From an uncultured Planctomycetia bacterium (GTDB taxonomy: Bacteria; Omnitrophota; Gorgyraeia; 2-01-FULL-45-10), in the NCBI GenBank assembly GCA_964352425.1, contig CAYGRZ010000006.1:1-44485 (forward strand): 44,485 nucleotides of DNA, written 5' to 3'. The notes beneath the pieces were generated by a model. The model saw only the letters and a list, made by a program, of their open reading frames with translations, was not told where the DNA came from and searched no databases. The position numbers were made by a program, and so were the translations under genes. Positions 1,737 to 19,700 of this stretch are shown one piece after another (within the stretch, counting starts at the first letter, position 1; each line of letters opens with the position of its first letter).

Positions 1737-3404
1737 ATGAATATCATCAATCTCTCGCTTAAGGTCCTCGAACCCAACCGCAGGTCATTTGAGGCAGCCA
1801 CAAAGGATCCCATCAAAGCGCAGGAGAAGGTCCTTCTCGAATACCTGAAGCGCAATAAGAACACCGAATACGGACGGGCCCATAATTTCGCCGCCATCAG
1901 GTCAATAGAGGACTACCGCTCGAGCGTGCCGCTCGTAGAGTACGAGTCGATCCGGCCGTATGTCGACAGGATGGCCGCCGGCGAGAAGAATATCCTGATA
2001 AGGGACACCCCGGTCTTTTACGGCATCACGAGCGGCACCACCGATAAGCCGAAACTCATCCCCACGACCAGATACTCCGAAAAGAAGAAAGACGAGATCC
2101 TCAACCTCTGGAGCTACTATATAGCGCGCGACCACCCCGATGTGCTCGACGGAAAGATCCTCGCTATCGTGAGCCCGGAGGAGGAGGGGCATACTCCCGA
2201 TGGGACGCTCCTGGGCGCCGAGAGCGGCCACAGCTACCGCCAGCTTCCCGCGACGGTCATGCTCCTGTATTCGCTGCCATATGAGGTATTCGAGATACCG
2301 GACTACGAGGCACGCCATTACGCGATGCTGCGCATCAGCATGGGCCAGGACATAACCGATGTCGCGACGCTCAACCCCAACACCATCGTCCTCCTGTGCA
2401 GGAAGATCGCCCGGTGGCAGGACCTTATCATAGCCGATATCGCTGCCGGAACGCTCTCGGAAAAGTTCGATATACCCGAGCGCATACGCCGGATCATCAG
2501 CAGGCACCTGAAGCCGGACAAGCGGCGCGCCGAGGAGCTTAAGGCGATCCTGTCAGCTAAAGGGACGCTTCTCCCCAAAGACTTCTGGCCCAATATGAAG
2601 ATCATCGAATGCTGGGTGGGGGGGATGATGAAGCTCTATCTCAAAGAACTCGAGGCATACTTCGGCCCTGTCCCGATACGTGATATGGGCTGTGTCTCGA
2701 CCGAGGCGCGCAGTTCCATACCCGTGCGCGACAATGACCCGGGCGGAGTGCTGGCCATACAGACCAATTTCTACGAGTTCATCCCGAAAGATGACGCCGA
2801 CAAGGAAGAGAAGCGCGTGCTCCTCTCGGACCAGCTCGAAAAGGGGAAGGAATATTGCATCGTCGTGACGACCGCCGGCGGCCTGTACAGGTACAATATC
2901 GACGACATTGTCAGGGTGTACGGGTTCTTCAATTCGACGCCCATGATCGAGTTCGTCCAGAAGGGGCGCGGCGCGACGTCGCTCGGGGGCGAGAAACTGT
3001 ATGAATCGCACGTGACCGACGCGGTCAACGCGGCTACAGGGAAATTGGGAATATTCGTCGACTTCTTCTGCGCGGTCACAAAACCGATGGACGGCCCGCG
3101 CTACGATTTTCTCGTTGAATTCTCCGGAACTGCGCCTTCGGATAAGAAAATGATCACCTTCCTGCAGACGGTAGAGAAGGAGCTTTACGCGCGCAACAGG
3201 GAATACGGGTTCGCCCGGCAGTCGCAAGTGCTGAAGAGCCCGATCATGAAGGTCGCCCGCAAGGGTTCATTCGAGAGTTACCGTTCAAAGAAGATATTGC
3301 AGGGGGCGAAGGAGGGACAGTTCAAAGCGCCCCAGCTGACATCCGACCAGGATTTCGATAAGAACTTCTCCGTCGAGAAAACGATCTCTCTTCCCGATAA
3401 TTAA
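1737..3404 (+). CDS. GH3-family acyl-acid amido synthetase-like protein (adenylate-forming)
   Basis: 555 aa; AQEKVL..YL..N..TEYG N-terminus, ITSGTTDKPK loop, FYEFIP, TT.GGLYRYNIDD, GEKLYE, all typical of GH3 proteins. Confidence 0.88.
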   Translation: MNIINLSLKVLEPNRRSFEAATKDPIKAQEKVLLEYLKRNKNTEYGRAHNFAAIRSIEDYRSSVPLVEYESIRPYVDRMAAGEKNILIRDTPVFYGITSGTTDKPKLIPTTRYSEKKKDEILNLWSYYIARDHPDVLDGKILAIVSPEEEGHTPDGTLLGAESGHSYRQLPATVMLLYSLPYEVFEIPDYEARHYAMLRISMGQDITDVATLNPNTIVLLCRKIARWQDLIIADIAAGTLSEKFDIPERIRRIISRHLKPDKRRAEELKAILSAKGTLLPKDFWPNMKIIECWVGGMMKLYLKELEAYFGPVPIRDMGCVSTEARSSIPVRDNDPGGVLAIQTNFYEFIPKDDADKEEKRVLLSDQLEKGKEYCIVVTTAGGLYRYNIDDIVRVYGFFNSTPMIEFVQKGRGATSLGGEKLYESHVTDAVNAATGKLGIFVDFFCAVTKPMDGPRYDFLVEFSGTAPSDKKMITFLQTVEKELYARNREYGFARQSQVLKSPIMKVARKGSFESYRSKKILQGAKEGQFKAPQLTSDQDFDKNFSVEKTISLPDN

Positions 3405-3430
3405 GTAATAAAAAAGTTTGATTATCGGAC

Positions 3431-3459: not shown

Positions 3460-3530
3460 AGAGGTGAGTAGGGGTATTTTTTTGACCAGATAGTAAAAGT
3501 TTTTCCTGGAATTGAGAGGCGGTGGTAAAC

Positions 3531-3911
3531 ATGTTGACATTGACACGTTTCACAAAAATGGTGTTGCTAACCTTATTCGTGGCGGGCTTTTTTGTGTCCG
3601 CGTGCCATGCCGAGACGATGGCCACCTATTCAGGGAAGTACGCCCTCGACCTGGAGCAGAAGCAGATGCTCCTCGACTCGATTAAGGAAGACGCGGAGAA
3701 GACCGGGGCCGAGGTAAAGGATAATGTCGACATGATCAAGGCCGCAGACGATGCCAAGACGAGCACATTGAGGATGGAAAATATCAACCTCGTTGAATTG
3801 ATGCCTTCCGTAGAAAAGATCAATGTGGCGTTCACCGCCACTAATCACATGCTGTCGCCCGAATCAGGCCTCAGGATATGGAAGAAAAGCGAAGCCAGAT
3901 CCCGCCGGTAG
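3531..3911 (+). CDS. Hypothetical exported protein
   Basis: Signal-peptide-like N-terminus (RFTKMVLLTLFVAGFFVSACHA-E); GAGAGG upstream of ATG 3531; start could also be 3522 or 3558. Confidence 0.7.
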   Translation: MLTLTRFTKMVLLTLFVAGFFVSACHAETMATYSGKYALDLEQKQMLLDSIKEDAEKTGAEVKDNVDMIKAADDAKTSTLRMENINLVELMPSVEKINVAFTATNHMLSPESGLRIWKKSEARSRR

Positions 3912-4447: not shown

Positions 4448-4475
4448 ATTATATCATATATTCGGTAAAATTCAA
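4448..4475 (-). promoter_or_regulatory. Putative sigma70 promoter (extended -10), probably leaderless
   Basis: Minus strand reads TTGAAT, 16 nt, TGa-TATAAT, 8 nt, ATG (4439). Confidence 0.6.
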
Positions 4476-4538
4476 ATTGCATCTAAAAAAAGTTAATAGT
4501 AGAATAGGCTTGAAGCTGCTCGATACACGTACAATACT

Positions 4539-5513
4539 ATGACCGCGATCGGAAACCGGACACTCAGCACCAACGTTTTCCTGGCTCCCATGTCGGGATG
4601 CACCGACCTTGCCTTCAGGCTGATCGCCCGGGAGCACGGCGCGGCATTCGCTTTCTTCGAGATGATAGACTCGCATTCCGTCTTCTACCACCGCACAAAG
4701 ACATACTCGCTCCTGAAGACGCTCGCCGATGACGCACCGATAGCGCTGCAGCTCCTCGGCGCCGACCCTGACATCATGTTGAAGGCCGCCCAGGATATCC
4801 TGTCGATGATCGACGTCTCGTTCCTCGATATAAACGCCGGGTGCCCGGCCAAGAAGGTGATAAGGAAGAAGGCCGGCTCATATCTGCTCGAGGATCGCGA
4901 CGCGCTCTACAGGATCATCGGCAAGCTTACATCTTCATTGCTCGTCCCGGTGACCGTAAAGATACGGCTCGGCCACCACAATGAAACGTTGCAGGACATC
5001 ATAGGACTGGCGAAGCGGTGCGAGGACACCGGCGCGTCCGCGCTCTTTGTCCACGGGCGCACGAGGCTGCAGCAATACTCCGGGGAAATTGATTACGGAG
5101 CCATACAGGCGATAAAAGAGTCTGTGCGCATACCCGTCTTCGGCAGCGGCAATATCCTTTCGCCGGACGGTGCGAAGAAGATGTTCGACCTGACCGGATG
5201 CGACGGCATCCTCGTTGCGCGCGGCGCGCTCGGCAATCCGTGGATATTTAAAGGGATAGAATCACGCCTGGCTGGCGGCGAAGGGGTCTTGGGGCCGTCA
5301 CTGGCCGACAGGAAGGATGTCCTGAAGCGCCACCTCTCGTACATCGACCGGCACAACGACTGCAGTCCGACGGTCAAGGTGGGCATCATGCGCAAGGTCT
5401 CGCTCTGGTACCTGAAGTCGTTCATGAACGCCAGGAGGATCCGCGAGAAGATATGTGTTGTCAACAGCTATGAAAAGATGCTAAAATTTATCGACTCGAT
5501 CGGCGACACATGA
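4539..5513 (+). CDS. dusB: tRNA-dihydrouridine synthase (DusB-like)
   Basis: LAPMSG, DINAGCP, PVTVKIRLG, VHGRT, GCDGILVARGALGNPW. Confidence 0.9.
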   Translation: MTAIGNRTLSTNVFLAPMSGCTDLAFRLIAREHGAAFAFFEMIDSHSVFYHRTKTYSLLKTLADDAPIALQLLGADPDIMLKAAQDILSMIDVSFLDINAGCPAKKVIRKKAGSYLLEDRDALYRIIGKLTSSLLVPVTVKIRLGHHNETLQDIIGLAKRCEDTGASALFVHGRTRLQQYSGEIDYGAIQAIKESVRIPVFGSGNILSPDGAKKMFDLTGCDGILVARGALGNPWIFKGIESRLAGGEGVLGPSLADRKDVLKRHLSYIDRHNDCSPTVKVGIMRKVSLWYLKSFMNARRIREKICVVNSYEKMLKFIDSIGDT

Positions 5514-5583
5514 GATCTCTTACAGAATACCTGTTAGCTGCTACAAAAACCTGCCAATTGTTTCCCGACCAAAAATGCACCGG

Positions 5584-5653
5584 TGTTAAGTAGAAAAAAG
5601 ATAGCTTCCTTTCTATTGATTTAACTCATTTACGTGGTATGATTCTACTACGT
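5584..5653 (+). promoter_or_regulatory. Conserved promoter cassette of large gene A
   Basis: TGTTAA..AAAAAA..TAGCT..TTTCTA-TTGATT (5616-5621), 16 nt, TGg-TATGAT (5638-5643), 10 nt, ATG 5654. Homologous to 9594-9655 and 16649-16720. Confidence 0.7.
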
Positions 5654-8600
5654 ATGTGTGTCTATAGGAATGGGTATAGTCTTTTATATAAAGCTATAGC
5701 GCTAGCCATGGGGTGTCTATTTCTGGCTGACAGTATAACTTGGGCAGATCCTTCCTCGGCCACTACTCTTGCCGCAGAGTCCAGACTAAAACCTTTCTTC
5801 GAGAAACATGGCTTAGACTTCCAGAACCTCGCCACGGTAGTTTATACAGCCGGCAAGTTGAGAGATTTAGTTACGTCCGGAAGCCTGAGGGAGAGCCACA
5901 TCATGAATTTGAACAGGCTGTTTCCCGATGGCGCGATAAAAATAGACAAGGGTATTAAACAAGGCGCTCTAAGGTCTGGCAAGGTCTATAACTATGCCGT
6001 GTTTCGTTTTGAAAAAGAACAGAAAACTATCAAGGCGTTATTCATTAAAGACCATAATAAGCTTACCGACGATGAACTCTCAGAGCTTAGGATCAGGAAG
6101 GATGAAGTATATCATCTCGATTATCCGGGCCTGGAAGGAATATGGTTCGTAAATCCAGCCGCTATACCAGCGCCCGACATGCCATACACCTGGGGCGATG
6201 GCCCGGACACGGCGGACTTGTCCGCCGACCTGTCCGCCGAAGCCTCATCCGGTCCAGGCGTGACGGCAAAGGCGGATGGGGCGGCACCGAATGTAAAGTT
6301 CCTACGGTCTGCGATCGCCGAGCTGATGTCCCGCATGCCCGGCCCGCGTAGTCGGGCGCACCTTGAGGCGATGATGCGGGGTATCGTCGCGTGCAAAGAG
6401 ACCGGAGTCGCACCGACCGCTTCAGCTGTTGCGGAACGAGCGGGTATTACTATTCACCAGCTGCGCCATCTCGTTTATGGGCCGCTCGGCAATGAGCATG
6501 CGCAGACACTCGGTCTCGTGCTCGATGAGCAGGATACGTCGGGTAGGCTCGATGACATGGCTCTTGCCGTAACAAAGGTTACCCGGAAACATCCCGGCAA
6601 ACCGATATCGTTTGCCGGAATTGCAAGTGAAATGCGCGAGAAGATTGACTGGCAGGCGCTATGGCTTTGGTTTAAACGGCAGCGCAGCCCTGTGGCAAAG
6701 AAGATACGGAAGGGGATAAGCCGTTCCAGGGTCGCGCCCGAAAAAGGCGCCGCCGGCCATTGGAACATGTCGATCGAGGCGTTCCGGAATTTTGCCGAGC
6801 GCCGTTGCCGGGATAGACTGGGCATGCCTACATCAGCGCTCCGGCTGGGCTTGCGTTCACTGATAAACTTCAGGATTATCGTAGTCGCGACCGCGAAACT
6901 CGAAGAGAAGAAAGAGATACCTACAATAACTAATATAACCGGCGCTTCGCCGCATCTTACAAGGTACCAGGTGAACGATACCGTTGAACTTATCGGATGG
7001 CAGCGCGCAGAGAAGCTCGGAGTGGTGAAGGAGCACGATACGAGCGGAATGTCTGCAAGCGTCGAAAAGGCGCTTGCAGAGATCGCGAAGCATATGCCGT
7101 CAAGCGGCATAACTATAAAGCTCGTAGCCGACGCTCTAAAGAGAATGGGCTTGTACGATATGACGTACGGGAATTTCAACAGATGGTTAAAAGGTCCGGC
7201 GGGGAAGCGGTTTCTCGAAAAAATACAGGAGACCCGGCATAGCATACGAGACAGGGTTGACGCAGTGTTTGGAAGGATGACATCCGCGGAGCTTGCTTCA
7301 TTGGATAAAGCGGCGCTTGGCAGGCGCTCCGGGCTTTCGCGCTACGCCTGGAATACATGGACATACCGGCATCGTTTTGATTTCGAGGAGGAGAGGGCGA
7401 AGTTCCTGGATGAAGCCCGCAAAAGAGAGGAGGCGGCGCGGGCTGTTGATGCAATAGTTAATGAGCTGTCCTTGCCGGAGCATGTTACCCGCGATAGGAT
7501 AGAGGCGATTGCCGCGTCGGCAAGTCCCGGAGATATACAGAAAGGCGCCTGCGCCCTCATTACCAAAGCAAGGGAGCTCGATAGAAGGGCATCTACTACC
7601 AAGACCTCTGGAGAGAAGAAAGCGGCGCAAGATGCAGCCGGCAGCATTTACGTGCGGGTCTTTACACTATTGCAGATCTCCGGGGCCGATCGCGGGCTTT
7701 TCGATGAGATCAGGCCGATAGTGCTACAGCGCCTCGATGCCCGATCCGGAACCGGAACGAAGAAACCGGATGCCGCCTCAGTTCGTACAGAAGGAGCTCT
7801 CCGCGGTAAATACGAAAAACTCATGAATGCGGTGATCGACACGGAAGACCTGAAGGACGTGATCAGGATAGCCAATAGGATCATCTCGCTTTTGCGAGAA
7901 GATAAGGGGCTTAGCGCGGAACAGGCAGCCGGGCACGCCGAAGGACTTCTAGACCTTCTTGACGAGGCCGAGAGTTCTCATGAGCAGGAAATCGCCGATA
8001 CGGATGAGGCGGAAGGGGAAGCGGCCGCGGCGGATCTCGAGAGCCTGCGAGCCCAGTTAAAGGAACTTGTCGCAGAATCCGACGACCGGCCGGATAAATC
8101 ATGGAGCGTCGGCGCCGCCCGCGCCGACGGGCCGGAATTCGAGACGAAGCTCTCTGATCTTTTCGCGGAGGGGGAAGAAGTTTCAGGGGCGGCTCCCGAT
8201 AGAGCGGCACCGGCAGGAGCGTCCCCACAGGCCCCAAATGAGACTGTAAAAGCAAAAATGAAAAAAGCCAGGGATTTCATTTTTACTCCGGACTTAGCAA
8301 GACGCGAAGAAAAAGGCATCCCCTTTTTAACAGCGCCGGCGCTATTATCCCGCGGCGGTTCGGTAGATGAAGCGCTTGCCGGGATAGCCCTCCGCATAAA
8401 AGTCTCCGCGGACGCCCCGGCCGGCAAGCTTAAAGTGGATAATTTGCTCGGATATCTTGAAAGATATGCCCCGGAAACGTTTGGCGCGTCAGCCTCTAAA
8501 GACGAAAAGATGATGTTATTATGCCGGGCTTTATGCAAAGAGATCGCCGATTCGCGGTTTTACGGGGCCATGGAGGACGCGATAAACGATTCCATAAACG

Positions 8601-9490
8601 AAGAACTTTCGCGCCTGAAGAGAAGGATCGGCGAGGATCAGGTCAAGAGAGCGAAGATGAGCATGCGCCGCCGCATGTACAACGCTCTGGATGGTCTGCG
8701 TGAAGAGGCCTCTGCGCGGCTGCCCAAGCCTGCGGCCGCGGCGGCATCTAAGTTTTTGCTCGATTCTCAGGCAGATAGGAGTGCATACCAGTTTGTGGCG
8801 GAACCCGCCGTAACTCCCATCGCGATAGCGCAAGCCGAAGCTGACAGAATCCACGATGAGAACCTCAAGGCCGAATATATGCCGACCATCCCGGATAAGA
8901 CGATCCTGTGCCATATCATCACGGATTCGATAGTCCCCGCCGAACAACAGAATATGTTAAAAGTAGCGCTTGAGCAAAATATGGAGAAAGAAGCGGAGAA
9001 GGGTACGGACTATGGAGAAGGCTTCGCCTGCCTGTCGAGCGCCAACGCGGGCAATCCCGGCGGATATATCAAGGACCTGCAAAGTTTAATGCAAAAGAAG
9101 CGGGATGATTACAAAGCCCTGGGCTACACCGACGTCCGGTTCGACGTCGCCTGCCCGGACACCGGGCTCGTCAGCGCGGTCCTTGGAAGTAACCCTGGGA
9201 TAAAAGCCCTTGCCTTTGAACCCTGTAAAGGGGCTGATTTTGATCTTGTGCAGGTCGAAGGCATCATGCTGGCATTGAGAGCGCTCGATTCCGGCGATAT
9301 AGAAAAACTTAAAAGCGTATTCATCCTCCTTGCGGGGAATAGGCTATCCCCGGAACAGTCGGCCATAATGGATATCGATAAATTCATCAAAACCGTGTCC
9401 TTTATTCTCCCCGCCGCGAAGGTAGAGGACTACAATGAGCGCAGAAGGCTAAACGACCTCATCACGGCCAACATCAAACAGGCGGCGTAA
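5654..9490 (+). CDS. Large modular protein A: signal peptide + conserved N-domain, HTH-like repeat array, helical region, conserved C-domain
   Basis: 1283-aa ORF. The track start (5639) lies inside the -10 box, so ATG 5654 is preferred. N- and C-terminal regions are clearly homologous to gene B; ends NIKQAA. Confidence 0.9.
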   Translation: MCVYRNGYSLLYKAIALAMGCLFLADSITWADPSSATTLAAESRLKPFFEKHGLDFQNLATVVYTAGKLRDLVTSGSLRESHIMNLNRLFPDGAIKIDKGIKQGALRSGKVYNYAVFRFEKEQKTIKALFIKDHNKLTDDELSELRIRKDEVYHLDYPGLEGIWFVNPAAIPAPDMPYTWGDGPDTADLSADLSAEASSGPGVTAKADGAAPNVKFLRSAIAELMSRMPGPRSRAHLEAMMRGIVACKETGVAPTASAVAERAGITIHQLRHLVYGPLGNEHAQTLGLVLDEQDTSGRLDDMALAVTKVTRKHPGKPISFAGIASEMREKIDWQALWLWFKRQRSPVAKKIRKGISRSRVAPEKGAAGHWNMSIEAFRNFAERRCRDRLGMPTSALRLGLRSLINFRIIVVATAKLEEKKEIPTITNITGASPHLTRYQVNDTVELIGWQRAEKLGVVKEHDTSGMSASVEKALAEIAKHMPSSGITIKLVADALKRMGLYDMTYGNFNRWLKGPAGKRFLEKIQETRHSIRDRVDAVFGRMTSAELASLDKAALGRRSGLSRYAWNTWTYRHRFDFEEERAKFLDEARKREEAARAVDAIVNELSLPEHVTRDRIEAIAASASPGDIQKGACALITKARELDRRASTTKTSGEKKAAQDAAGSIYVRVFTLLQISGADRGLFDEIRPIVLQRLDARSGTGTKKPDAASVRTEGALRGKYEKLMNAVIDTEDLKDVIRIANRIISLLREDKGLSAEQAAGHAEGLLDLLDEAESSHEQEIADTDEAEGEAAAADLESLRAQLKELVAESDDRPDKSWSVGAARADGPEFETKLSDLFAEGEEVSGAAPDRAAPAGASPQAPNETVKAKMKKARDFIFTPDLARREEKGIPFLTAPALLSRGGSVDEALAGIALRIKVSADAPAGKLKVDNLLGYLERYAPETFGASASKDEKMMLLCRALCKEIADSRFYGAMEDAINDSINEELSRLKRRIGEDQVKRAKMSMRRRMYNALDGLREEASARLPKPAAAAASKFLLDSQADRSAYQFVAEPAVTPIAIAQAEADRIHDENLKAEYMPTIPDKTILCHIITDSIVPAEQQNMLKVALEQNMEKEAEKGTDYGEGFACLSSANAGNPGGYIKDLQSLMQKKRDDYKALGYTDVRFDVACPDTGLVSAVLGSNPGIKALAFEPCKGADFDLVQVEGIMLALRALDSGDIEKLKSVFILLAGNRLSPEQSAIMDIDKFIKTVSFILPAAKVEDYNERRRLNDLITANIKQAA
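6210..6276. repeat. Palindromic REP-like element in frame inside gene A
   Basis: CGGCGGAC-TT-GTCCGCCG hairpin (6210-6227); 12-bp tandem GAC(T/C)TGTCCGCC; TCCGCC (6233-6238) complementary to GGCGGA (6271-6276). Encodes ADLSADLSAEA...AKAD. Confidence 0.55.
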
Positions 9491-9593
9491 TTCCAACATC
9501 CTGTTCCTTTCAGATTGCATAGAAACCTGCCTATAGTACCCAAATAATGACCCCTAGTGCACACATACCCTACATAATGCATGCATGTTAGAT

Positions 9594-9655
9594 AGGAAAA
9601 AGGTAGCTAAATTTCTATTGACTTAACATGTTTATGTGTTAAGCTAATGGCACGT
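9594..9655 (+). promoter_or_regulatory. Conserved promoter cassette of large gene B
   Basis: TTTCTA-TTGACT (9618-9623), 16 nt, TGt-TAAGCT (9640-9645), 10 nt, ATG 9656. Confidence 0.7.
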
Positions 9656-12600
9656 ATGTTTATATCTGATATCAGATATGGCAGGTTATTAAAGGCTATA
9701 GCGGCAGCGGTAGTGTGTACATTTTTGGTTAATGATATAGCCTGGGCAGACTCGCCTCCCGATTTATTTAATCCTTTACAAAGTGCCACACTTGCCCCGG
9801 AGTCCCGACTTAAGTCCTTCTTCGAAAGACATGGCTTAGATTTCAAAAATACCGCCACAGTAATGTTGGCTGCCGGACAACTGCGAAATATGATTGCAAC
9901 CGGTGGCGCAGGACAGGGCAACATTATGAGATTGAATCAATTGTTTAGTGGCGGCGAAGTAGAAATAGAGAAAGATATCAAACAAGGTAATCTTAGATGC
10001 TCCGGCAGGACATATGATTACGCCGTATTTCACTTCAAAAAAAAGAACAAGACAGTCAATGCGCTATTCATTAAGGACTATGACAAGCTTACTGATGATG
10101 AGCTGAGAGAGTTTGGAGTAAAGACTGCCGAAGATAAGCGGTATTTCAATTCTTCGGAGAATCCTGCCTTAAAGGGAGTATGGTTTAAAACGCAACAAGA
10201 CATATGGTCGGAGCGCGCCGCGGAGGTTGTAGAAAACGCGCGTAATTGCATCATAGGCGATATTAGAGATTTTGACCCGCAGGTTGCGCAAAAGAAAGAG
10301 TCCTTCCTGGCTATCCTTTATCATGCCGCGCAGGAAAGGCTTGATAGCATCGCGAGTAAAACGGCGAAGGGAAAACTAAAAATCTTCGCGCGGATGAACC
10401 TGATGAACCTATCGCCGGAAAAACAAAGCGGAGAGCTCGATTACCCTGATGAGGAAATTAAGGTGGTATTGATGACCAGCACTGCTAACCCGCTGACCTG
10501 GGGGCACATCCTGACCCCTTTAGTTGCCATGGACGAACTTAATGCCGATTTTATAGTTCTGCAGGCGCATGGGAAGATGGAGCACAAAGAAAAACTTTAT
10601 CCTTCTGAACGCGTTTCCGTAGCGCATCGCCACCATATGGTACGGGAATCGATCGACAGATTGTCCCCTCTTATGCGTTATACGGATTTAGGAAGCGAAG
10701 ACGATGATTCGCTTGAAGCAGCCGCGCAAATGCACCGCCTTTTAGCGTTAAATCCTAACCGCAAGGTACATATTTTCTTTCTTATTGGAGCGGAAAGTGA
10801 AGCAAGGATGAACAAATACATTCGTCAGCACTATCAGATGTTTAAGGAGAATAATTTCGGTCACAACCCGAACCATAAAATAACCTTTACTGTTACACAA
10901 AGAGGCGAATATGGCAAGCGGGTTACCCTCGAAGAGCTGCTTGCCATATCCCGCCAAGCGCAGAAAGAGCTAGCTTGCGAACAGTTTCTTGATATCGCCC
11001 TGATCCAGCACCCCCATATGGATCTGGGGGTAGCTTCGACCTATTACCGTGTTACGCAGGACGGCGCTTTTGTGCCAAAACCGGTGCATGAATTCTCAAA
11101 GCGTTTTGGTTATTACGGCCATTCACCCATAGATCCACTAACCGGAAAGCCGTTTTATTCCCAGGAAGAATCTTTCAGGAAGAAGATTGGTCCTGTGGCG
11201 AAAGAATTGGCCGCAATGATATATGCAAAAATTAAGGCGGGAATCGCCGGCGATACTCCATTTGTATCTGTGGACGGAGGCTCAGGCTCCGGGAAAAGCA
11301 CTCTCGGAGCAGAAGTCGCAAAGATTCTCTCCGAAGAATACGGCCTTGAATCCAGGATTATAGGTTTTGATATGTGGCTTAAAGACAGGAAATGGCGGAT
11401 AGCGATACAGAAGTTAGTTAAAGGCGACAGGCTAACTTCGGAAGAAATGAAAATTGCAGGAGAATTGATAAACAGAATTAAGCCTAGAGAGATATTTTTC
11501 GGTGAAGAAGGATTTTTTAAGAATGAGGAGATCTTAGCAACTGTAAAGGAATTGGATAACTGGCGAAATTCTTCTTCCGATACGCATACCATGGCCGTTA
11601 AAGACGCTTATATCCGCGAAAAGGGCACAAGGGAAGACGTGTCTATAGGTTTAAAAAAAGGGCAGGTAATAATTTTTGACGGCAAATACGCGAATACCGA
11701 AGAGCTCCAACCGTATTACGATCTGCGTTTTCGTTTGCATGATTCCCCTGACCGCACCGAGGCGCGTTTTCAGATCCGTTCAAGGAAATATAACCCGGAC
11801 GATGCCGATATCCAGGTAGTTTTTTATAAGCTGGCATTGATACCTTCGTATGAGGCTTATGACAAAAGGACAGAATCTAAAATTCACGGGTTTATTGATC
11901 TTAGGGAGGAGGGGAACTGGTTTTTGGAAACCAATTCCGCCGTCTATGCGCTTCCGGATCCGCTTGATTATCCCCCTGAAAAGTTCAGCCGTGTTTTCGT
12001 TGAGTCTGTATATAAGAATTCCTTGAATGAAAAAACCAAGAAAGAGATAAGGCAGCTTTTTGGCGCTATTCAGGCAGAGAGGCTGCTTCCTAAATTGTAC
12101 AAATTTTTTGAAAATTACTTTTTTGTCAGAAAAGGGAGGTTTAACAGTCAGAATGCAGCCCCGGAGATCCGGTCGTCTTTAATGGCGATTCCAGGCTATT
12201 GTCGGGAATCTACGAAGTTCTTCAGATTTGATCATGATAAAAAAACAGTTCAGAAGTATTTTGCCAAACTGATAGACGAAAAAGTCAAAAAAAATGACCT
12301 TACAGTAACAGCGAAAAGCGTGGGTATCTCGAGCGGCGAGGAGCCTTACAGCATTGCCATGCATATTTATTACGCGATGAAGAAATATTACCAAAGTCAT
12401 AATATGCAAAAGGACGGATTTCGGACCTGGCTCTTAAAATGGAAAATAAGAGTCGAGGCCTATGACAAAGACTTGGTGAGCTTGTGTCTTGCGCGTAACG
12501 GATTATTTGATTTTCAGTATGATGAACCGTTGACCGAAAACGCAGACCCTTATTATGACAATCCTTGGCTGATAAACGGCCTTGATCCGGGCGAGACATG

Positions 12601-13615
12601 GAGTAAAAGAGCAGCTCAAGGCATGATGTTGCCGTTCAGGGAGCCCGCCCTAAACGCTCTTAAGGCAAGCGGACGCAGTAAGTTTGATTTTGCTTTTCAG
12701 GCTGATCCTATAATAAGGGGTTGGATCAAGCCGATCTATGTTAATATAAGAAGCCGAGATGATATGCCGATACTTACCCGCACAAAGGCAAATGTTGTAA
12801 TTGTGGGTTACCTAAATGGTTCAAGGATGCTTGGCGATGAAAACCGCTATATTGAAGATGATTTAAAAAAAGCAGTCGATACCGATTATCCCGCCCTGTT
12901 GTGTTTTGGGGATACCGAGGTTGGAAAAGCGGGTGTAAACCCGCAAAAGAGGCCGTACTTGGAAAATACTCCTTTTAATTTGGTGCGTGATGAAGAACGC
13001 AAAATTCATGCCGAAAATCTCAAATATACACCACCTGTTGCCAACAATACGGTCCTCTGCCATATTGTCGCGCCCTCAATACTGCCAGAAGGCCAGAGAG
13101 GTATGCTGAATAGGCTCGATAGCGGAATGAGAAGCCGGAAATATATTGAAAAGATGCTCGAGCTTAAGACTGACGGTTCCGGTGATTTTATAGAGCAGAT
13201 AAAGGATACAATGCAGAGAACGCAAAAGATATACGAGAAAGCTTACGGTAAAGATTACGTCAATTACACGTTTAAATTTGACATCGCCTGTCCAAACCTG
13301 GATCTTGTAAGAAGAGTCCAGGTCGAATTGGGCCTGCCAGCCCTTGCGTTCGCTCCGGAAGAAGGCGGGGGCAACATGGTCCAGGCGGAAAATATCATGC
13401 TTGCATTAAGGGCCCTCCGTATATCCATGGAAACAAACGATATTCAAATCCTTATCAATGCCTATGTTTTTATTACCGGGAATAGGGCAGGTTCGGGGAT
13501 TAAAAATATTGCCAAATTTACCAGGACCAAGTTGTTCGCTATGCCGAAAGTGAATGTCGATGAACTCGGCAGAATCAACGCCTTAATTGAAAAAAATATC
13601 AAGACCGCAGCGTAA
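9656..13615 (+). CDS. Large modular protein B: conserved N-domain, HxGH-type (NadD-like) nucleotidyltransferase, uridine-kinase-like P-loop domain, CheR-like methyltransferase, conserved C-domain
   Basis: STANPLTWGHI (about 10477-10509), VSVDGGSGSGKST (about 11263-11302), SVGISSGEEPYSIAM (about 12317-12361). Termini homologous to gene A; ends NIKTAA. Visibly more AT-rich than the housekeeping genes. Confidence 0.9.
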   Translation: MFISDIRYGRLLKAIAAAVVCTFLVNDIAWADSPPDLFNPLQSATLAPESRLKSFFERHGLDFKNTATVMLAAGQLRNMIATGGAGQGNIMRLNQLFSGGEVEIEKDIKQGNLRCSGRTYDYAVFHFKKKNKTVNALFIKDYDKLTDDELREFGVKTAEDKRYFNSSENPALKGVWFKTQQDIWSERAAEVVENARNCIIGDIRDFDPQVAQKKESFLAILYHAAQERLDSIASKTAKGKLKIFARMNLMNLSPEKQSGELDYPDEEIKVVLMTSTANPLTWGHILTPLVAMDELNADFIVLQAHGKMEHKEKLYPSERVSVAHRHHMVRESIDRLSPLMRYTDLGSEDDDSLEAAAQMHRLLALNPNRKVHIFFLIGAESEARMNKYIRQHYQMFKENNFGHNPNHKITFTVTQRGEYGKRVTLEELLAISRQAQKELACEQFLDIALIQHPHMDLGVASTYYRVTQDGAFVPKPVHEFSKRFGYYGHSPIDPLTGKPFYSQEESFRKKIGPVAKELAAMIYAKIKAGIAGDTPFVSVDGGSGSGKSTLGAEVAKILSEEYGLESRIIGFDMWLKDRKWRIAIQKLVKGDRLTSEEMKIAGELINRIKPREIFFGEEGFFKNEEILATVKELDNWRNSSSDTHTMAVKDAYIREKGTREDVSIGLKKGQVIIFDGKYANTEELQPYYDLRFRLHDSPDRTEARFQIRSRKYNPDDADIQVVFYKLALIPSYEAYDKRTESKIHGFIDLREEGNWFLETNSAVYALPDPLDYPPEKFSRVFVESVYKNSLNEKTKKEIRQLFGAIQAERLLPKLYKFFENYFFVRKGRFNSQNAAPEIRSSLMAIPGYCRESTKFFRFDHDKKTVQKYFAKLIDEKVKKNDLTVTAKSVGISSGEEPYSIAMHIYYAMKKYYQSHNMQKDGFRTWLLKWKIRVEAYDKDLVSLCLARNGLFDFQYDEPLTENADPYYDNPWLINGLDPGETWSKRAAQGMMLPFREPALNALKASGRSKFDFAFQADPIIRGWIKPIYVNIRSRDDMPILTRTKANVVIVGYLNGSRMLGDENRYIEDDLKKAVDTDYPALLCFGDTEVGKAGVNPQKRPYLENTPFNLVRDEERKIHAENLKYTPPVANNTVLCHIVAPSILPEGQRGMLNRLDSGMRSRKYIEKMLELKTDGSGDFIEQIKDTMQRTQKIYEKAYGKDYVNYTFKFDIACPNLDLVRRVQVELGLPALAFAPEEGGGNMVQAENIMLALRALRISMETNDIQILINAYVFITGNRAGSGIKNIAKFTRTKLFAMPKVNVDELGRINALIEKNIKTAA

Positions 13616-13687
13616 TTACAATATAATCCCACTATCACCCTTTACAAAAATCACCAATCTGCTACAATATCCACATCTATAACTATA

Positions 13688-13732
13688 GAGATTGCTTCGG
13701 CTCGCTGCCTTCGGCAGCGGCCTCGCAATGAC
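13688..13732. repeat. REP-like palindromic element GAGATTGCTTCG...CTCGCAATGAC
   Basis: Outer arms ATTGC/GCAAT; inner perfect 7-bp hairpin CGCTGCC-TTC-GGCAGCG (13703-13719). Lies between a TTTACA-16-TACAAT promoter (13641-13668) and the yjbQ RBS. Confidence 0.7.
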
Positions 13733-13748
13733 GGAGGAGAGGCTTACC

Positions 13749-14165
13749 ATGAAATCCCACACCGAATATCTCTGGATGAATACGAAAGAGCGCTACGCGA
13801 TCGTAAATATCACACCCCAGGTCGAAGACGCCGTGAAGAAGAGCGGCGTGCAGGAGGGACTCTGCCTGGTCAACTCGATGCACATCACCTCGAGCGTCTT
13901 CATCAACGACAACGAGGCGGGCCTGCACCGGGATTTCATCGAGTGGCTCGAGAAGCTGGCGCCGTACGGGAAGAACGCCTACAGGCATAACCTGACCGGC
14001 GAAGACAACGGCGACGCGCACCTTAAGCGTACGATCATGGGCCGCGAGGTGGTCTGTGCGGTCACCGGCGGCAAGCTCGATTTCGGGCCGTGGGAGCAGA
14101 TCTTTTACGGCGAGTTCGACGGCCGGCGGCGCAAGAGGGCGCTCGTAAAGATACTAGGGGAATGA
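13749..14165 (+). CDS. yjbQ: YjbQ/UPF0047 family protein (secondary thiamine-phosphate synthase-like)
   Basis: [42 protein letters not shown]; GGAGGAGAGG upstream of ATG 13749. Confidence 0.9.
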
Positions 14166-14166
14166 T

Positions 14167-14598
14167 ATGGGTTTCGCCATAAAGCTGGTAATAAATATCA
14201 TCGCGCTCTTCTTCGTCGTCAACATCGTGCCGGGCATAAGCGCTTCGAGCTGGCAGGCGCTCGTCGTCGCCGCCGTCATCATCGGGCTCCTGAACACGTT
14301 CCTGCGGCCCGTCCTGATCCTGCTGACCCTGCCGATATCCATACTCTCGATCGGCCTCTTCACCCTCGTCATAAACGGTTTCATGTTCTACCTCGCGTCG
14401 ATGGTCGTAAAAGGATTTGTCGTGGCGAGCTTCTGGAGCGCTTTCTTCGCGGCGCTTCTCTTCAGCCTAACGAGCTTCATACTGAATACCATATTCAGCA
14501 CGGGGCTCCGTATCCGGTTCGGCTCATCCGGCCGCAAGGGGCCGGACCGGAAGAAATATGATAATGTGATAGACGTCGAAGGCAAAGTCGTTGACTAA
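14167..14598 (+). CDS. YvlD/DUF360-like 4-TM membrane protein (phage holin superfamily IV annotation)
   Basis: GLLNTFLRPVLILLTLPI.ILSIGLFTLVING...GF.V.SFWSAFFAAL; C-terminal VIDVEG tail. Confidence 0.85.
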   Translation: MGFAIKLVINIIALFFVVNIVPGISASSWQALVVAAVIIGLLNTFLRPVLILLTLPISILSIGLFTLVINGFMFYLASMVVKGFVVASFWSAFFAALLFSLTSFILNTIFSTGLRIRFGSSGRKGPDRKKYDNVIDVEGKVVD

Positions 14599-14611
14599 CA
14601 GGAGGGTCGCT

Positions 14612-15010
14612 GTGGGAACATTCATCAAACGAATACTGATCGCAGCCGTCGTCATCGTTGCACTCATCTTCATCTACCGCATCGCATTCGTCAGGACCGT
14701 CAATTATGAGATAGGCGGCATCAAGATACCGTCGAAATATAACGCGCTCACCGGCACAGTCACGCCGATACTGAACTACAAGGGCAGGGACATCAAAAAG
14801 ACCGTCGTGGACCGGAAGGCGGGCAATATAGGCCTGTCCGGCGAAGAGGTGACGCTCGCGCAGTTCAGGTGGGCGTTGTTTGAGCAGTGGGTGAAGGCGC
14901 AGCCGCAATACAGGGGATGGGAATCGAATCCGGTCATATTCAAAAAGGCAAACGACGGCTTCCGTAAGGTGACGGAAGCTTCCGGCACGCAGGTTAAAAT
15001 AGTCAAATAG
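14612..15010 (+). CDS. Hypothetical membrane-anchored protein
   Basis: AGGAGG 6 nt before GTG 14612; N-terminal KR followed by hydrophobic helix ILIAAVVIVALIFIY. Confidence 0.75.
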   Translation: MGTFIKRILIAAVVIVALIFIYRIAFVRTVNYEIGGIKIPSKYNALTGTVTPILNYKGRDIKKTVVDRKAGNIGLSGEEVTLAQFRWALFEQWVKAQPQYRGWESNPVIFKKANDGFRKVTEASGTQVKIVK

Positions 15011-15017
15011 ATTTGTA

Positions 15018-15046
15018 TTTACTCTCTGCCTGCTTAGTAGTATAAT
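15018..15046 (+). promoter_or_regulatory. Putative sigma70 promoter, probably leaderless
   Basis: TTTACT, 17 nt, TATAAT (15041-15046), 8 nt, ATG 15055; no Shine-Dalgarno. Confidence 0.55.
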
Positions 15047-15054
15047 TTTGCCTG

Positions 15055-16605
15055 ATGATTAAGCAGTCCGCACTACCGATCACGCGGGTCGGTTTCGATA
15101 ACGAAAAGTACCTGAAAGAGCAGACCGCCGCGATCGTCGATCGTGCCGATAAATTCGACTCAAAGCTCTACCTCGAGTTCGGCGGAAAGCTCTGCTTCGA
15201 CTACCACGCCGCGCGCGTCCTTCCGGGTTATGACCCCAACGTCAAGATACGCCTCCTGCAGCATCTGAAAGACAAGGTCGAGATCGTGCTGGCCATCTTC
15301 GCGGGCGACATCGAGAAGGGGAGGGTCCGCGGCGACTTCGGCATCACCTACGATGCGGCCACGTTCAAACTGATCGATGACCTCAGGAAGTGGGGCCTCG
15401 ACATATCATCGGTCGTGATAACCAGATTCGCGAACCAGCCGTCGGCGGTCATATTCAAGAACAAGCTCGAGCGCCGCGGCGTCAAGGTCTGCCTGCACTA
15501 TCCGATAGACGGCTACCCGACGAGTGTGGACCACGTGGTCAGCGACAACGGCTTCGGCAGGAACGGTTATATCGAGACGAAGAAACCGATCGTCGTCGTC
15601 ACCGCGCCCGGCCCGAACAGCGGCAAGCTCTCGGTCTGCCTTTCGCAGCTCTACCACGAGCATAAGCGCGGCATCAACGCCGGCTACGCGAAGTTTGAGA
15701 CGTTCCCGATATGGAACCTGCCGCTCAAGCATCCCGTCAATATCGCATACGAGGCAGCGACCGCGGACATCCTCGACTTCAACCTCGTTGACCCGTTCCA
15801 TCTGGCCAAGTACAACGAGACCTCGATAAATTACAACCGTGACGTCGAGTGCTTCCCGATACTAAAGCTCATCCTCACGCGGATACTCGACTCGAGGGCC
15901 GCCGGCCTGCCGGTCTATAATTCTCCGACGGATATGGGCGTCAACCGCGCGGGTTTCGGCATCGTCAATGACGAGGTGGTCTGTGCAGCGTCGAAACAGG
16001 AGTTCATCCGCAGGTACTTCCGCTATAACCAGGAATACGTCCTCGGTATCGAGAAGAAAGAGGCTGTCGATCGCGTCGCGATGCTGATGGAGGAAACGGG
16101 GGTCAAGGTCACCGACAGGGCAGTCGTCGCCGTCGCCAGGAAAGCGGCTGAAGACGCCGAGCGCAACGGAAAGGGGCATGCCGGGATCTTCTGCGGCGCG
16201 GCGCTGCAGCTGAAGGATGGCCTGACCATAACGGGGAAGAACTCGACATTGATGCACGCCGCTTCGAGCCTCATCCTGAACGCCCTCAAGACGCTGGCAA
16301 AATTACCCGACGAAATATTGCTGATATCTCCTCAGATCATCAACCAGATCAACACCCTGAAAGAGGACGTGCTCAAAGGCGAACCCGAAAGCCTCGACCT
16401 CGAAGAGGCGCTCATAGCGCTGTCCATAAGCGCCACCACGAACCATACGGCCGAGCTGGCTATGAAAAAGCTGATCGAACTGCGCGGCTGCGAGATGCAC
16501 ATGACCCACATACCGACGCCGGGGGATGAGGTAGGCCTGAAAATGATAGGCGTAAACCTCACCACCGATGGAAAATTCTCCTCCCACAATCTCTTCATAA
16601 CCTGA
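15055..16605 (+). CDS. DUF1846 / UPF0371 family protein
   Basis: GFDNEKYL, KLYLEFGGKL..DYHAARVLPG, TAPGPNSGK, GYAKFETFPIWNLPLKHPVNIAYEAATAD, SPTDMGVN. Confidence 0.9.
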   Translation: MIKQSALPITRVGFDNEKYLKEQTAAIVDRADKFDSKLYLEFGGKLCFDYHAARVLPGYDPNVKIRLLQHLKDKVEIVLAIFAGDIEKGRVRGDFGITYDAATFKLIDDLRKWGLDISSVVITRFANQPSAVIFKNKLERRGVKVCLHYPIDGYPTSVDHVVSDNGFGRNGYIETKKPIVVVTAPGPNSGKLSVCLSQLYHEHKRGINAGYAKFETFPIWNLPLKHPVNIAYEAATADILDFNLVDPFHLAKYNETSINYNRDVECFPILKLILTRILDSRAAGLPVYNSPTDMGVNRAGFGIVNDEVVCAASKQEFIRRYFRYNQEYVLGIEKKEAVDRVAMLMEETGVKVTDRAVVAVARKAAEDAERNGKGHAGIFCGAALQLKDGLTITGKNSTLMHAASSLILNALKTLAKLPDEILLISPQIINQINTLKEDVLKGEPESLDLEEALIALSISATTNHTAELAMKKLIELRGCEMHMTHIPTPGDEVGLKMIGVNLTTDGKFSSHNLFIT

Positions 16606-16648
16606 TTAACGGATCAAATCTATCCATAAAATCCCATAAATGTGCTTC

Positions 16649-16720
16649 TGTTAGGTAATAAAAAAGCTACATATGTTTCTATTGACTTAACATGATGGTA
16701 TGGTATAATTGTACACATAT
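16649..16720 (+). promoter_or_regulatory. Conserved promoter cassette of giant gene C
   Basis: TTTCTA-TTGACT (16682-16687), 16 nt, TGg-TATAAT (16704-16709), 11 nt, ATG 16721. TTTCTATTGACTTAACATG is identical to the gene B promoter. Confidence 0.75.
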
Positions 16721-19700
16721 ATGTTAAGTAATAGTAAATTTAGGCAGCGGATATTCAAGGTTATTTGTTTAGTATTAGCCTGCGTCCTGATATTAAATGA
16801 TTTAAGTTTTGCCGCGTCTCAAAACGATCAGCATCTCGCCGCTGCCAGCCGCTTCAATTCCATACTCGGTCAAAAGAGGAATAAGCCTTTCGTTGAAGCC
16901 GCAACATTTATGGTCATCTCCTCAATCATCGGCAAATACCTGCGCGACGGTATATCCCAGTACACGTTGATCCCCTGCATCAAACATCGGATATCCAAGA
17001 CCGAGCTTGCATGGGCCAGGGAGAAAGACCCTCTTCTCGCAGGATGCGCTATAGACGAGCTGTCATTCCGCGCGGACGAAAAGGCGTTTTATCTGCCGCT
17101 CTATCGCAGGGACGCGCAGGGAAAGAGAGTAAAGGCGTACGTATATACATTTTTAATCGAGGGCGGGAGCACCGATACAGGTTGGACCATTCCGCTGGGG
17201 AATGGGACGAATGTCTATGTGAAGGTCGACGTAGTGCCGGGATATGAGCCGCCGGTCAGCCGAAAGCAGGCAGTCGAAAAGCCACAGGCAGCCGGCAGCA
17301 ATGTTGTGGCCGCCGACAGGCCCTCCGAGCCTGTAACCATCAGCGCAGCCGGGTTGCAGAACGAGATAGCCGGTATTATCGCATCAGACGGCTATCCGGC
17401 TGACAAAGTGAATCTGCGAGACTTGTTCGCATATGTAAAAGCGCACAATCCCGGAATGGTGCAGCTCGGTACGACAGAGGATGAGAAGCTCGCCATCTTC
17501 TGCCTGGCGATCTGGGGGGGCGGACAGGACACCATACGTTTTTCATTTAAGGAGACGGTGCAGCCATCAGAGATGCAGGATCTCAAACAGGGCCTGATCG
17601 CCGATCTCACCAACGATGCGAAAAAAACCCTGGATAAACTTGAACACGTCGTGCTCCGGTCGGACAGGCGTTGCGCGTTCGCCGTTGCCCAATACTACGG
17701 AGCCGGCAACACGAATATCGCCTCTCTTATGACGTGGTCGCCTCAGAAGGCCAGAGTGGCCCGGGAGTTCTTCGGGCTCTGCGTCGAACCGGAAAAACGG
17801 AGATTCGTCGGGCAATGGGAGAGGGATTACGCAAGGCATCTCTCGGGGATGTCCTCCAGAGAGCTTCAGCGCGAATGGGAGAGGGTCGGCACCATTGCCG
17901 GATATATAAATGACCCGCTCTATCTTCTTTCGGTCAACGATTGCCTGAGCGATACGTTTCAGTTCCTCCATCCGTCTTCTTTCTATGTCTTCGACACGGC
18001 ATCGGACCGCGCGGCGGTCAAACATATCGTATCTTACATCGCAAAGACGGGTATCCTGCTCGAATGGGCGTCCCGCCATTGGGGTCCAAAAGAGGCGGCC
18101 GGCTTTTCATCGCTTCCCCGCACGATAACGCCGAGCCTGAGCTATATCAAAGAAACCATCTTCCCGCGACACCTTGAAGACGGAAGCGAGGTGCCGTTCG
18201 AGAACAGGGTGGCATGCAAAGTCCTCAGCGCTCTGACCGACGCGGATGCGGAGACGATATTGGGCTCAAAGCCGGAAGATAAAGGCCCGAACGTAGCTGA
18301 AAAAGAATTCAACCGCCAGCAGGCGCGCATCTTCAGGGACGGCGGCGACGGGCCGGAGGTAGCCCGTGAAATGTTCGCTCCGGAAAGCGGTCCGCTCCGA
18401 AGCGCCGAAGAAGTATCGCCGGAATTTATCAAAAAAGATAAGCGCGGCAGGATCAGGGCGGTAAAAGACAGGTTCGGGACCGTCTGGGAAGAATACCATT
18501 ACAGAACCTTCCGGAACGTAGTGAAGCTGCGAAATTTAAAGACAGGGAAGATGGATATAAAGGTCAGGTACCCATCCGGAGAAAACGCTATCGAGGCATG
18601 CAAGGTAATGGTGAAGGGCAAATCAGCCGGTTCCGTCGATTATTACACGGACGCCAATACCATAACAACGATCCGTATAAACGACAGGGACAAGGGTGTG
18701 GGAGAAACGGTAGTGAACTGGTTCTTCAAGGCGGCCGAGAGGCGCGGCGCCTCACGCGCGGGGATATCCGGCGTCGCCAATCCTGCGCTCGACCATATAG
18801 GCAGAAAGCTCATAAAAGAACCCGCCAATATGAAGCCTGAAGAGATGGATCCGGCCGCCGTCGAATATGCGGTGATGGGAGCCGACTTTGATCCGTTCAG
18901 AAGTTCCGGAAGCGAACTCGGAACGGTAAAGGTCTCGGACGGCAAGATCGTATCATTCGACCTGCCGGCTCACCTCGTTCCGGCCCTTGACAGAGGAAGG
19001 GTTGTCGTACGCGACCGGACCTCCGGCAAAGAGGCGGATGTCGTAATACTTTACAATAAACAGAAGAGAGAGAATATCCACGGCGCACCGAATCCGATAT
19101 TCCCGGTTCTCCACCCGGACGGAGCGATAGAGCACCGGCAGGAAGGCGGAAAGGCCGATGAAATATCCGGTTCGCCAACGGTGGATGCATCCTCTCCCAT
19201 TACATCCGCCACTCAAGAAGCTAACAAGGCCGAAGAGTATTTTAGCGCGAATGGCCTCACAGGATACCCTGCATTGAAAAAAGCATTTACCTCCGAAGTA
19301 TTGGCTGCGCTCATCGACGACCCCGCGCTGCGGCCCGTGTTCCTGCAGGTGCTGCCACAAGAGAATATGGGGCCGCTCGAAATAGATGAGACAATCACAA
19401 TTGCCGGCAAAGATGTGCGGGATATCCTTGAAGAGCATAGCGTATTCCTGGTCGGCGGCGCCGATACGGCAGAGCGGTTATTGAGAGAGGGCCATAGAAT
19501 AGTAGTAGGCGTTACCGACAAGCCAAGCAGCAAAACGCTTATACCGGTGAATAAGGTAGCCAACGGCAGGCAGGCGTATTTCCCGCTTCCGGACGGCACC
19601 TGGCTTGGGATAAAAGGTGCGGGTCAATTTAACAGTGAAACAGAGCCGCCATTCTATTTCAGGAATCAGGCCGGATACCCCGAAAGGTGGGAGGCTCTCG

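Follow-up and report, generated by a model that had tools for sequence, protein, structure and literature searches.

The binding site of the Escherichia coli activator CRP is a short palindrome, LysR-type promoters combine a recognition site near -65 with an activation site at -35, and LytTR operators are direct repeats with a period of 21–22 bp. At class I sigma70 promoters, for which CRP provides the E. coli model, the activator site lies upstream and is accompanied by a downstream UP subsite (excerpts of PMC4132738), and at the type III secretion promoters of Pseudomonas aeruginosa, ExsA, a member of the AraC family, uses two adjacent sites, one over the -35 hexamer and one over an adenine-rich region near -51 (excerpts of PMC4552939). 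Here we describe a promoter element of about 21 bp that stands, in one or two copies, upstream of genes for very large proteins in a 44,485-nucleotide stretch of DNA (the window, positions 1–44,485 of contig CAYGRZ010000006.1, assembly GCA_964352425.1) from an uncultured Planctomycetia bacterium that GTDB places in the Omnitrophota. Judging from sequence, we think it fairly probable that this element is the binding site of one lineage-specific activator, which would switch on the genes for giant and other secreted or surface proteins together.

Giant proteins of the Omnitrophota are a noted puzzle, and their function is guessed from domains. In the sections consulted, the literature portrays them as large multi-enzyme, signal-peptide or membrane proteins (bioRxiv 10.1101/2023.11.21.568195; bioRxiv 10.64898/2026.06.07.730766; PMC10066038), and PMC10066038 cites a 3-fold increase in the amount of one of them when cells are attached. 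In the available main texts of these three sources the words “promoter” and “riboswitch” occur 0 times, the preprint supplements lying outside that scope, and the sections consulted describe no regulatory motif. Our literature searches found no study of Omnitrophota promoter motifs; the supplements of both bioRxiv preprints could hold a motif analysis.

Results

A promoter element at a fixed distance from the -35 hexamer

We scored 206 promoter-like sites of the source genome with a left-arm matrix that had been trained without that genome. The element reads GTTAR-N4/5-AAAAAA-GNNWG and starts 29–33 nt before the TTG of the -35 hexamer. It is present at 20 of the 206 sites (19 at offsets 30–32 and one more at 29), and its position and orientation are fixed relative to the -35: among 24 left-arm hits of at least 9 bits at offsets 16–74, 21 fell at 30–32, and 15 of these at exactly 31.

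The promoters that carry the element differ from the rest in what they drive. Eighteen had an open reading frame (ORF) within 400 nt, as called by a crude gene caller, and products of at least 900 amino acids lay behind 12 of these 18, compared with 6 of the 144 other promoters (Fisher p 6e-10). A hydrophobic N-terminus, the cut-off by which signal peptides were assigned here in place of a predictor, was encoded behind 14 of 18 element promoters and 57 of 144 others (p 0.002). Element-driven genes encode proteins of 12,491, 6480, 5935, 4541, 3388, 2839, 2293, 1505, 1486, 1319, 1278 and 914 amino acids. Further targets were a 325-amino-acid secreted protein that leads into an 1883-amino-acid giant, a 700-amino-acid protein that by eye resembles a two-partner-secretion transporter, and a 129-amino-acid protein encoded in the window. 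The last of these, despite its small size, is a candidate for membership in the regulon of the giants.

A first-pass annotation of the window, made from its sequence, had proposed a dedicated regulon, and this proposal is both supported and extended, as the element is almost absent from housekeeping promoters and is carried by giant or secreted-protein genes. The same annotation expected a genome scan to return mainly members of one protein family. The full two-copy cassette occurs only at genes A, B and C of the window and at a paralogue of A and B on contig C9, and the single-element regulon proved wider than one family; the single-arm copy at 3400–3420 had been overlooked.

Two observations concern individual targets. 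The element promoter at C5:34780-35060, divergent from a SpoVG-like gene, faces a GC-rich stretch of about 280 nt with no called gene; its predicted fold is -115 kcal/mol, a value given with no shuffle control, and it has no Rfam match at E<=0.05. One weak match to it was found in a related genome behind a similar promoter, and the stretch is a possible undescribed non-coding RNA. In addition, many of the giants encoded on contigs C4, C5, C6, C9, C15, C19, C22, C24 and C32 have at their C-terminus a short helical tail whose last residues are -AA, -SA or -SV, a possible shared C-terminal signal, though pairwise searches link only subsets of these proteins.

The 41-bp cassette is two head-to-head copies of the element

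The 41-bp palindrome upstream of A, B and C is two head-to-head copies of the same ~21-bp element. When the right arm was reverse-complemented and scored with a matrix of 17 sites, 16 of them single-arm, it averaged 11.5 bits compared with -11.3 for shuffled arms, and it scored above zero in 103 of 103 real and 7 of 103 shuffled cases. In the source genome the inverted copy was positive only at A, B, C and the C9 gene and negative at 16 single-arm promoters; the upstream copy alone marks most targets. In cassette A, GTTAA...AAAAAA-GATAG occupies 5585–5604, and the inverted copy at 5605–5625 straddles the -35. The TTG of the -35 sits in the free, variable spacer of the inverted copy, which is an unusual promoter layout. 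The first-pass annotation had read the TGTTA...TAAC arms as a possible operator flanking the -35; the arms are indeed the conserved part, but they belong to two copies and not to one operator.

Within the genome the full cassette is sharply distinct. When its 3.37 million positions were scored with a matrix trained on 9 sites from elsewhere, in other genomes, just 4 exceeded 35 bits, these being the cassettes of A, B, C and C9, and none scored between 18 and 35. The string TTTCTATTGAYTTAAC has 3 exact matches in the window and none further at up to 3 mismatches, while shuffles at up to 3 mismatches averaged 0.36 matches and reached 3 in 2 of 100 trials.

We then compared cassettes from related genomes. 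Sixty retrieved stretches, representing 62 of 67 new strong profile hits, together with three loci of family f12 gave 65 sites. YTAAC was kept in 62 of them, and 64 had the left GTTAR with at most one mismatch; these arm counts lean high, because the model that found the sites contained both arms. In the same sites the TTG of the -35 was kept, and the hexamer read TTGA(C/T) in only 29. Sequence conservation marks the GTTAR...YTAAC arms as the conserved, putative protein-binding part. In positions that the search pattern left unspecified, an A-tract, TAGCT and TTTC were conserved, and the upstream flank was not.

The core promoter has sigma70-type features, with a TAnnnT -10 in 101 of 103 cassette sites, TG in 88 of 103, and spacers of 15, 16 and 17 nt in 6, 64 and 33 of the 103. 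At A, B and C the -35 is TTGAYT, and the ATG follows the -10 by 10, 10 and 11 nt with no Shine-Dalgarno sequence. The annotation had counted the 16-nt spacer, the extended -10 and this short leader as cassette features. All are present at A, B and C, yet none is specific: among 177 generic promoter-like sites of the source genome the spacer was 16 nt in 49 and 17 nt in 78, TG before the -10 was common, and neighboring housekeeping genes likewise have very short leaders. Across 106 cassette sites the ATG lay within 32 nt of TAAC in 51, at 33–70 nt in 19 and beyond that in 36. The positions assigned to TGTTA were right for A (5584) and C (16649); that of B is 9586 rather than 9594. The 19 nt said to be identical between the B and C cassettes, TTTCTATTGACTTAACATG, are so, and the proteins, called distantly related, are even less alike than that, with no BLASTP alignment at E<=1.

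A third sequence, AGTGCACA, lies 29–32 nt upstream of GTTA in 22 of 136 cassettes, including that of B, and in 16 of these the distance is 31 nt. It is often followed 6–7 nt later by GTGA-like bases, and a second regulator may bind there.

Distribution across genomes

Surveys covered 40 genomes of the family, 14 of a second family and 151 of the class. The cassette pattern GTTAN{24,27}ATTGAYTTAAC matched 44 times in 22 of the 40 family genomes, with 0 matches for the reversed control, and was found in 5 of the 14 genomes of the second family. A sequence-only profile built on 44 training sites reached 38 of the 40 family genomes at E<1e-8, among them 16 of the 18 with no training site; the two that it missed are 73% and 79% complete. 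At E<=1e-5 the profile matched 16 of 151 class genomes. A strict cassette pattern, run against the GTDB collection, returned 7 records, 6 of Candidatus Omnitrophota and 1 of an uncultured Planctomycetia from the source genome's own family.

The single element is more widespread. GTTAN{5,7}AAAAR-N15-TTG-N{19,20}-TANNNT occurred at least 4 times in 32 of 151 class genomes, which we call element-rich, and the reversed control did so in 1 of 151. The element-rich genomes, with up to 20 occurrences each, belong to 12 families, one of which contributes just a single borderline genome; 86 of the 151 genomes had none. In f15, the family richest in sites, the element takes the form of a GTTAG direct repeat, 15–16 bp apart, around the A-tract. 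A stricter pattern, of lower sensitivity, matched in 13 of the 59 class genomes searched, whereas none of 62 genomes from other classes contained it. The core WTTGAYTTAAC-N12-TANNNT alone produced many chance matches outside families f1 and f12.

In metagenomes, a pattern that specified no -10 at all gave 57 matches, 55 of them distinct. TAnnnT was present at a spacer of 15–17 nt in 52 of the 55, the other 3 being cut by contig ends, and a hydrophobic N-terminus was encoded by 44 of 46 downstream ORFs. Viral contigs gave 0 matches.

Targets and riboswitches

The N-terminal regions encoded behind 106 cassettes fell into 33 BLAST clusters, and 92 of the 106 were hydrophobic at the N-terminus. 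Cassette targets include alpha/beta hydrolases and MEDS, PilZ-HD-GYP, LTXXQ, FN3/FG-GAP and rubrerythrin-like proteins. At most of the loci drawn from element-rich genomes the downstream product was again a signal-peptide protein, and a conserved cytoplasmic protein of 122–125 amino acids stands behind the element in three families, with no counterpart found in the source genome by tblastn. Because the targets are unrelated, comprising signal-peptide proteins as well as riboswitch leaders, co-duplication does not explain the element.

Of 17 loci chosen for their long leaders, 7 had a cyclic di-GMP (c-di-GMP)-I riboswitch (Rfam RF01051 / RF03167) immediately after the cassette. When the search began instead from riboswitches, the element was present at 14 of the 30 best loci of 113, or at 9 of 23 once the 7 training loci were left aside; promoters generally carry it at about 1 in 10. 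The source genome has the element at 1 of its 2 riboswitches.

Features of the window

The coordinates of the cassettes, promoters and genes are collected in Table 1. The products of A, B, C and D are large and modular, combining enzyme domains with an N-terminus that resembles a signal peptide. A and B have common N- and C-terminal domains (51% and 37% identity by BLASTP), which are also found in the 3388-amino-acid paralogue on contig C9, whose gene is preceded by the genome's fourth full two-copy cassette. C and D have a weak C-terminal domain in common (BLASTP). Promoter C is the best consensus match within window positions 1–17500. D has neither a cassette nor a promoter element of its own; as the first-pass annotation stated, it follows C by less than 20 nt, with in-frame ATGs 1, 16 and 19 nt past the C stop codon, and it is likely co-transcribed with C.

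Table 1. Positions of element copies, predicted promoters and associated genes in the window
Feature	Position	Strand	Scores and remarks
Single (upstream-only) element copy	3400..3420	+	31 nt before -35 TTGTCT (3431); -10 TATACT (3454-3459)
129-amino-acid protein behind single-arm element	3522..3911	+	signal-peptide-like N-terminus; no Pfam hit
Cassette A, 41 bp, upstream element and inverted copy	5585..5625	+	profile E 6.4e-15; inverted arm 14.2 bits
Promoter A (predicted, sigma70-type)	5616..5643	+	-35 TTGATT, 16-nt spacer, TG-n, -10 TATGAT
Gene A, 1278 amino acids	5654..9490	+	signal-peptide-like N-terminus; no Pfam hit
Third element AGTGCACA	9556..9563	+	31 nt upstream of GTTA of B
Cassette B, full 41 bp	9587..9627	+	profile E 7.8e-15; inverted arm 13.3 bits
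Promoter B (predicted)	9618..9645	+	-35 TTGACT, 16-nt spacer, TG-n, -10 TAAGCT
Gene B, 1319 amino acids	9656..13615	+	signal-peptide-like N-terminus; CheR-type SAM-binding domain
Cassette C, full 42 bp	16650..16691	+	profile E 8.4e-13; inverted arm 8.2 bits
Promoter C (predicted)	16682..16709	+	-35 TTGACT, 16-nt spacer, TG-n, -10 TATAAT
Gene C, 4541 amino acids	16721..30346	+	signal-peptide-like N-terminus; ILEI, TPR, metallophosphoesterase and GH2-like hits
Gene D, ~2030 amino acids	30348..36452	+	mannitol-dehydrogenase domains; start 30348, 30363 or 30366

In a congeneric genome (contig C5), the gene that follows DUF1846 still has the cassette and encodes a similar signal peptide, after which comes a different N-terminal domain (compare window 15055-16721); this suggests swapping of gene bodies behind a fixed promoter. 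Protein A (window 5654-6800) contains, by eye, a helix-turn-helix-looking stretch at residues ~260-290, which has no Pfam hit and is odd beside a signal peptide. Elsewhere in the window there are two carB-type genes for the carbamoyl-phosphate synthase large chain, in regions 3-1625 and 36722-41114; the one at the contig start looks truncated (~540 amino acids), and the full one follows carA. A gene resembling GH3-family acyl-acid amido synthetases occupies 1737-3404; just 6 nt separate its -10 from the ATG, and its transcript is likely leaderless.

Candidate regulators

Several proteins were considered as readers of the element. The best-fitting candidate, yet a weak one and confounded by kinship, is a 65-amino-acid HTH_17 (excisionase-like) protein encoded on contig C29. 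The 28 genomes with a match of at least 70 bits include 23 of the 32 element-rich genomes and also 4 with at most one site. Its gene usually precedes fatty-acid synthesis genes, and the site-richest family, f15, gave no hit at E<=1e-12, only a look-alike of ~38% identity. In the promoter of the HTH_17 gene itself (C29:15790-16128), all 5 family genomes inspected have CCTAAC, the reverse complement of the element half-site GTTAGG, two bases ahead of the -35.

A ribbon-helix-helix-like protein of 83 amino acids, encoded behind the cassette in f12, was set aside: it occurs in 51 of 151 class genomes, mostly element-free, and was not found in the source genome or in 4 family genomes. It has no Pfam hit, and its nearest named Atlas clusters (DUF7970, MetJ and ParB C-terminal, at 0.85-0.86) are leads only. 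A riboswitch-like pattern was noted in 11 of 30 loci of this protein family, in 9 of them ~170-320 nt upstream of the match. An 89-amino-acid winged-helix-like gene coupled to HD-GYP was likewise rejected, being present in 59 of 151 genomes, made up of 22 of the 32 element-rich ones and 37 others; it lies directly after or overlaps an HD-GYP-type gene (C1:76622-78398), an arrangement also seen in the 8 relatives inspected.

Four other candidates were compared with 4 element-rich genomes. A REC-AraC protein had a relative at E<=1e-20 in 1 of the 4, an XRE-REC protein in 0 of 4, and a 78-amino-acid helix-turn-helix-like protein in 0 of 4 in a search run without a positive control; a 217-amino-acid uncharacterized protein was found in 3 of 4 and in the negative-control genome too. 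The source genome also has 3 OmpR-type genes, one beside the pst phosphate genes, and, in comparison with OmpR/PhoB-type boxes, which are direct repeats with an 11-bp period, the inverted arm may be read as CTT..-N-CTTAA at 11-bp spacing. Other regulator-type genes recognized by eye in the source genome were two ROK, Lrp, MarR, Rrf2, Fis, IHF-like, two SpoVG, LexA and three ECF sigmas.

Discussion

Probable activation by an upstream-bound protein

The fixed phase and orientation of the element upstream of the polymerase footprint, its A-tract and the often degenerate -35 fit a class I activator site. With a start about 7 nt after the -10, the element would span about -65 to -46, and a bound activator would recruit RNA polymerase in class I geometry, with the A-tract near -56 to -51 a possible seat for the alpha C-terminal domain. 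The inverted second copy could provide a second control tier, either through a cooperative or class II contact or by capping expression at high occupancy. Riboswitch-led targets would then need both the activator and c-di-GMP, and the signal for the activator may relate to a surface- or host-attached state.

A number of findings weigh against this model. Activation as opposed to repression is judged from position alone, and many element promoters have near-consensus -35 and -10 boxes, with no obvious need of an activator. The search among candidate families and proteins named no regulator: the LysR DNA-binding domain (PF00126) had 0 matches in the source genome, which is 99.6% complete, with a control positive in 13 of 14 genomes; LytTR (PF04397) was found in 0 of 5 genomes, 4 of them element-rich; the source genome has no true sigma54 activator, only 3 weak AAA-type hits; and seven further candidate proteins did not convincingly track the element. 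The correspondence with secretion is imperfect in both directions. The element also precedes a nitrilase-type/NAD-synthetase-like gene, an AbrB-like antitoxin and a possible non-coding RNA, none of which suits a secretion theme, and some large secreted genes go without it: the 1661-amino-acid gene on C36 scores 2.3, and no element site was called for the 3675-amino-acid gene on C18 or for C42. The element taken alone is weak, with 28 hits above 16 bits in 3 locally shuffled genomes; because so short a sequence matches shuffled DNA, it is significant only together with a promoter. Finally, genomes related to one another cannot be treated as independent samples, and part of the metagenome matches come from genomes that had entered the counts before.

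Other readings of the element

RNA polymerase itself could read the element as a lineage-specific extended UP element, giving strong constitutive promoters with no separate regulator. The A-tract, at about -56 to -51, falls at the expected distal UP subsite, and together with a T-tract at about -40 to -38 it agrees with the A/T tracts expected between about -40 and -60. The element is also fixed in position and orientation, the great length of some genes may call for strong promoters, and the regulator search came back empty. We nevertheless regard this reading as improbable: specific bases, GTTAR and GNNWG, flank the A-tract, the alpha subunit would have little use for an inverted copy over the -35, the element is absent from many families of the class, and no ribosomal-protein gene lies behind any of the 19 promoters with the highest scores (rRNA promoters being outside that count). 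It is likewise rather unlikely, in our estimation, that the element is an operator for a repressor or silencer, with one copy hindering upstream polymerase contacts and the palindrome blocking the -35, so that the costliest genes stay off until a signal arrives. Such an operator would suit the direct overlap of the inverted copy with the -35 and the many promoters with strong consensus boxes. Most sites, however, have the upstream copy only, with no overlap of the core promoter, and the -35 is often degenerate where there are two copies. Phasing is also strict, with 15 of 24 hits at one offset, and strict phasing is more typical of polymerase contact than of steric repression.

Two further readings concern the cassette as such. 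If promoter and signal peptide had been copied as a unit while modular genes duplicated and swapped bodies, the shared sequence would be a by-product of ancestry. The genes of A, B and C9 are paralogues, the same short leader recurs, with similar signal peptides, at about half of the two-copy sites, and the congeneric genome keeps the cassette at the position of C before a different N-terminal domain; ancestry may account for some of the two-copy subclass. It is already largely refuted as the only cause, and we give it very little credence: blocks of conservation are interspersed with free positions, there is little information in the flanks, the element recurs in 11 or more families, and it stands before riboswitches and before non-homologous genes with leaders of 24 to ~380 nt. 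Least credible of all is a folded hairpin of RNA or single-stranded DNA (a terminator or part of a riboswitch) or a recombination site. The 41-bp consensus is self-complementary, as a hairpin would be, yet its center has no loop, most sites are one-armed, and the element lies upstream of the predicted start. Moreover, bases at 12 symmetric position pairs were complementary about as often as column shuffling predicts, no clear covariation stood out, and the window has no Rfam match, which together point to recognition of double-stranded DNA.

A possible surface program

The activator model can be taken further, although we offer the extension tentatively and lean against it in its full form. 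One DNA-binding protein, reading the GTTAG/A-tract element at ~20 promoters per genome, might govern a host-attachment or predation program as its master regulon across a multi-family branch of the Omnitrophota. The regulon would cover giants of up to 12,491 amino acids, two-partner-secretion and surface proteins, c-di-GMP enzymes and riboswitch leaders, and the inverted copy and the third element, three helical turns upstream, would rank expression. A shared element makes it testable whether unrelated giants form one program and whether that program is linked to host attachment and c-di-GMP. It could show which small uncharacterized genes belong to the program, and it can serve as DNA bait for the regulator and as a marker of true giant-gene 5' ends in fragmented assemblies.

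Comparison with known systems

The element differs from LytTR operators in its period, which is 15–16 bp. Two T-N11-A motifs can be read in the two-copy cassette at positions similar to those of LysR-type promoters, but the source genome yielded no LysR DNA-binding domain. The c-di-GMP-I riboswitch is itself a known system and stands directly behind many element promoters; the cassette, in contrast, is DNA upstream of the predicted start and no part of the riboswitch, and A, B and C have no riboswitch. The ExsA promoters resemble the cassette in their two-site layout, their A-rich upstream site and their secretion regulon, and differ in a spacer of 21–22 nt where 15–17 is found here (excerpts of PMC4552939); the single AraC-type protein seen here, moreover, has a close relative in only 1 of the 4 element-rich genomes tested. 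As far as the published descriptions consulted go, the targets are of the same kind as the known Omnitrophota giants. CRP-dependent class I promoters are alike in having a protein site upstream of the -35 at a set distance and in phase with the helix, an adjoining A/T tract and often an extended -10 (excerpts of PMC4132738), though unlike the CRP site the element is asymmetric, with two GTTAG-like half-sites 15–16 bp apart. Look-ups by sequence turned up no similar motif. The regulon is apparently undescribed so far, and it appears to work like the known activator-dependent sigma70 promoters.

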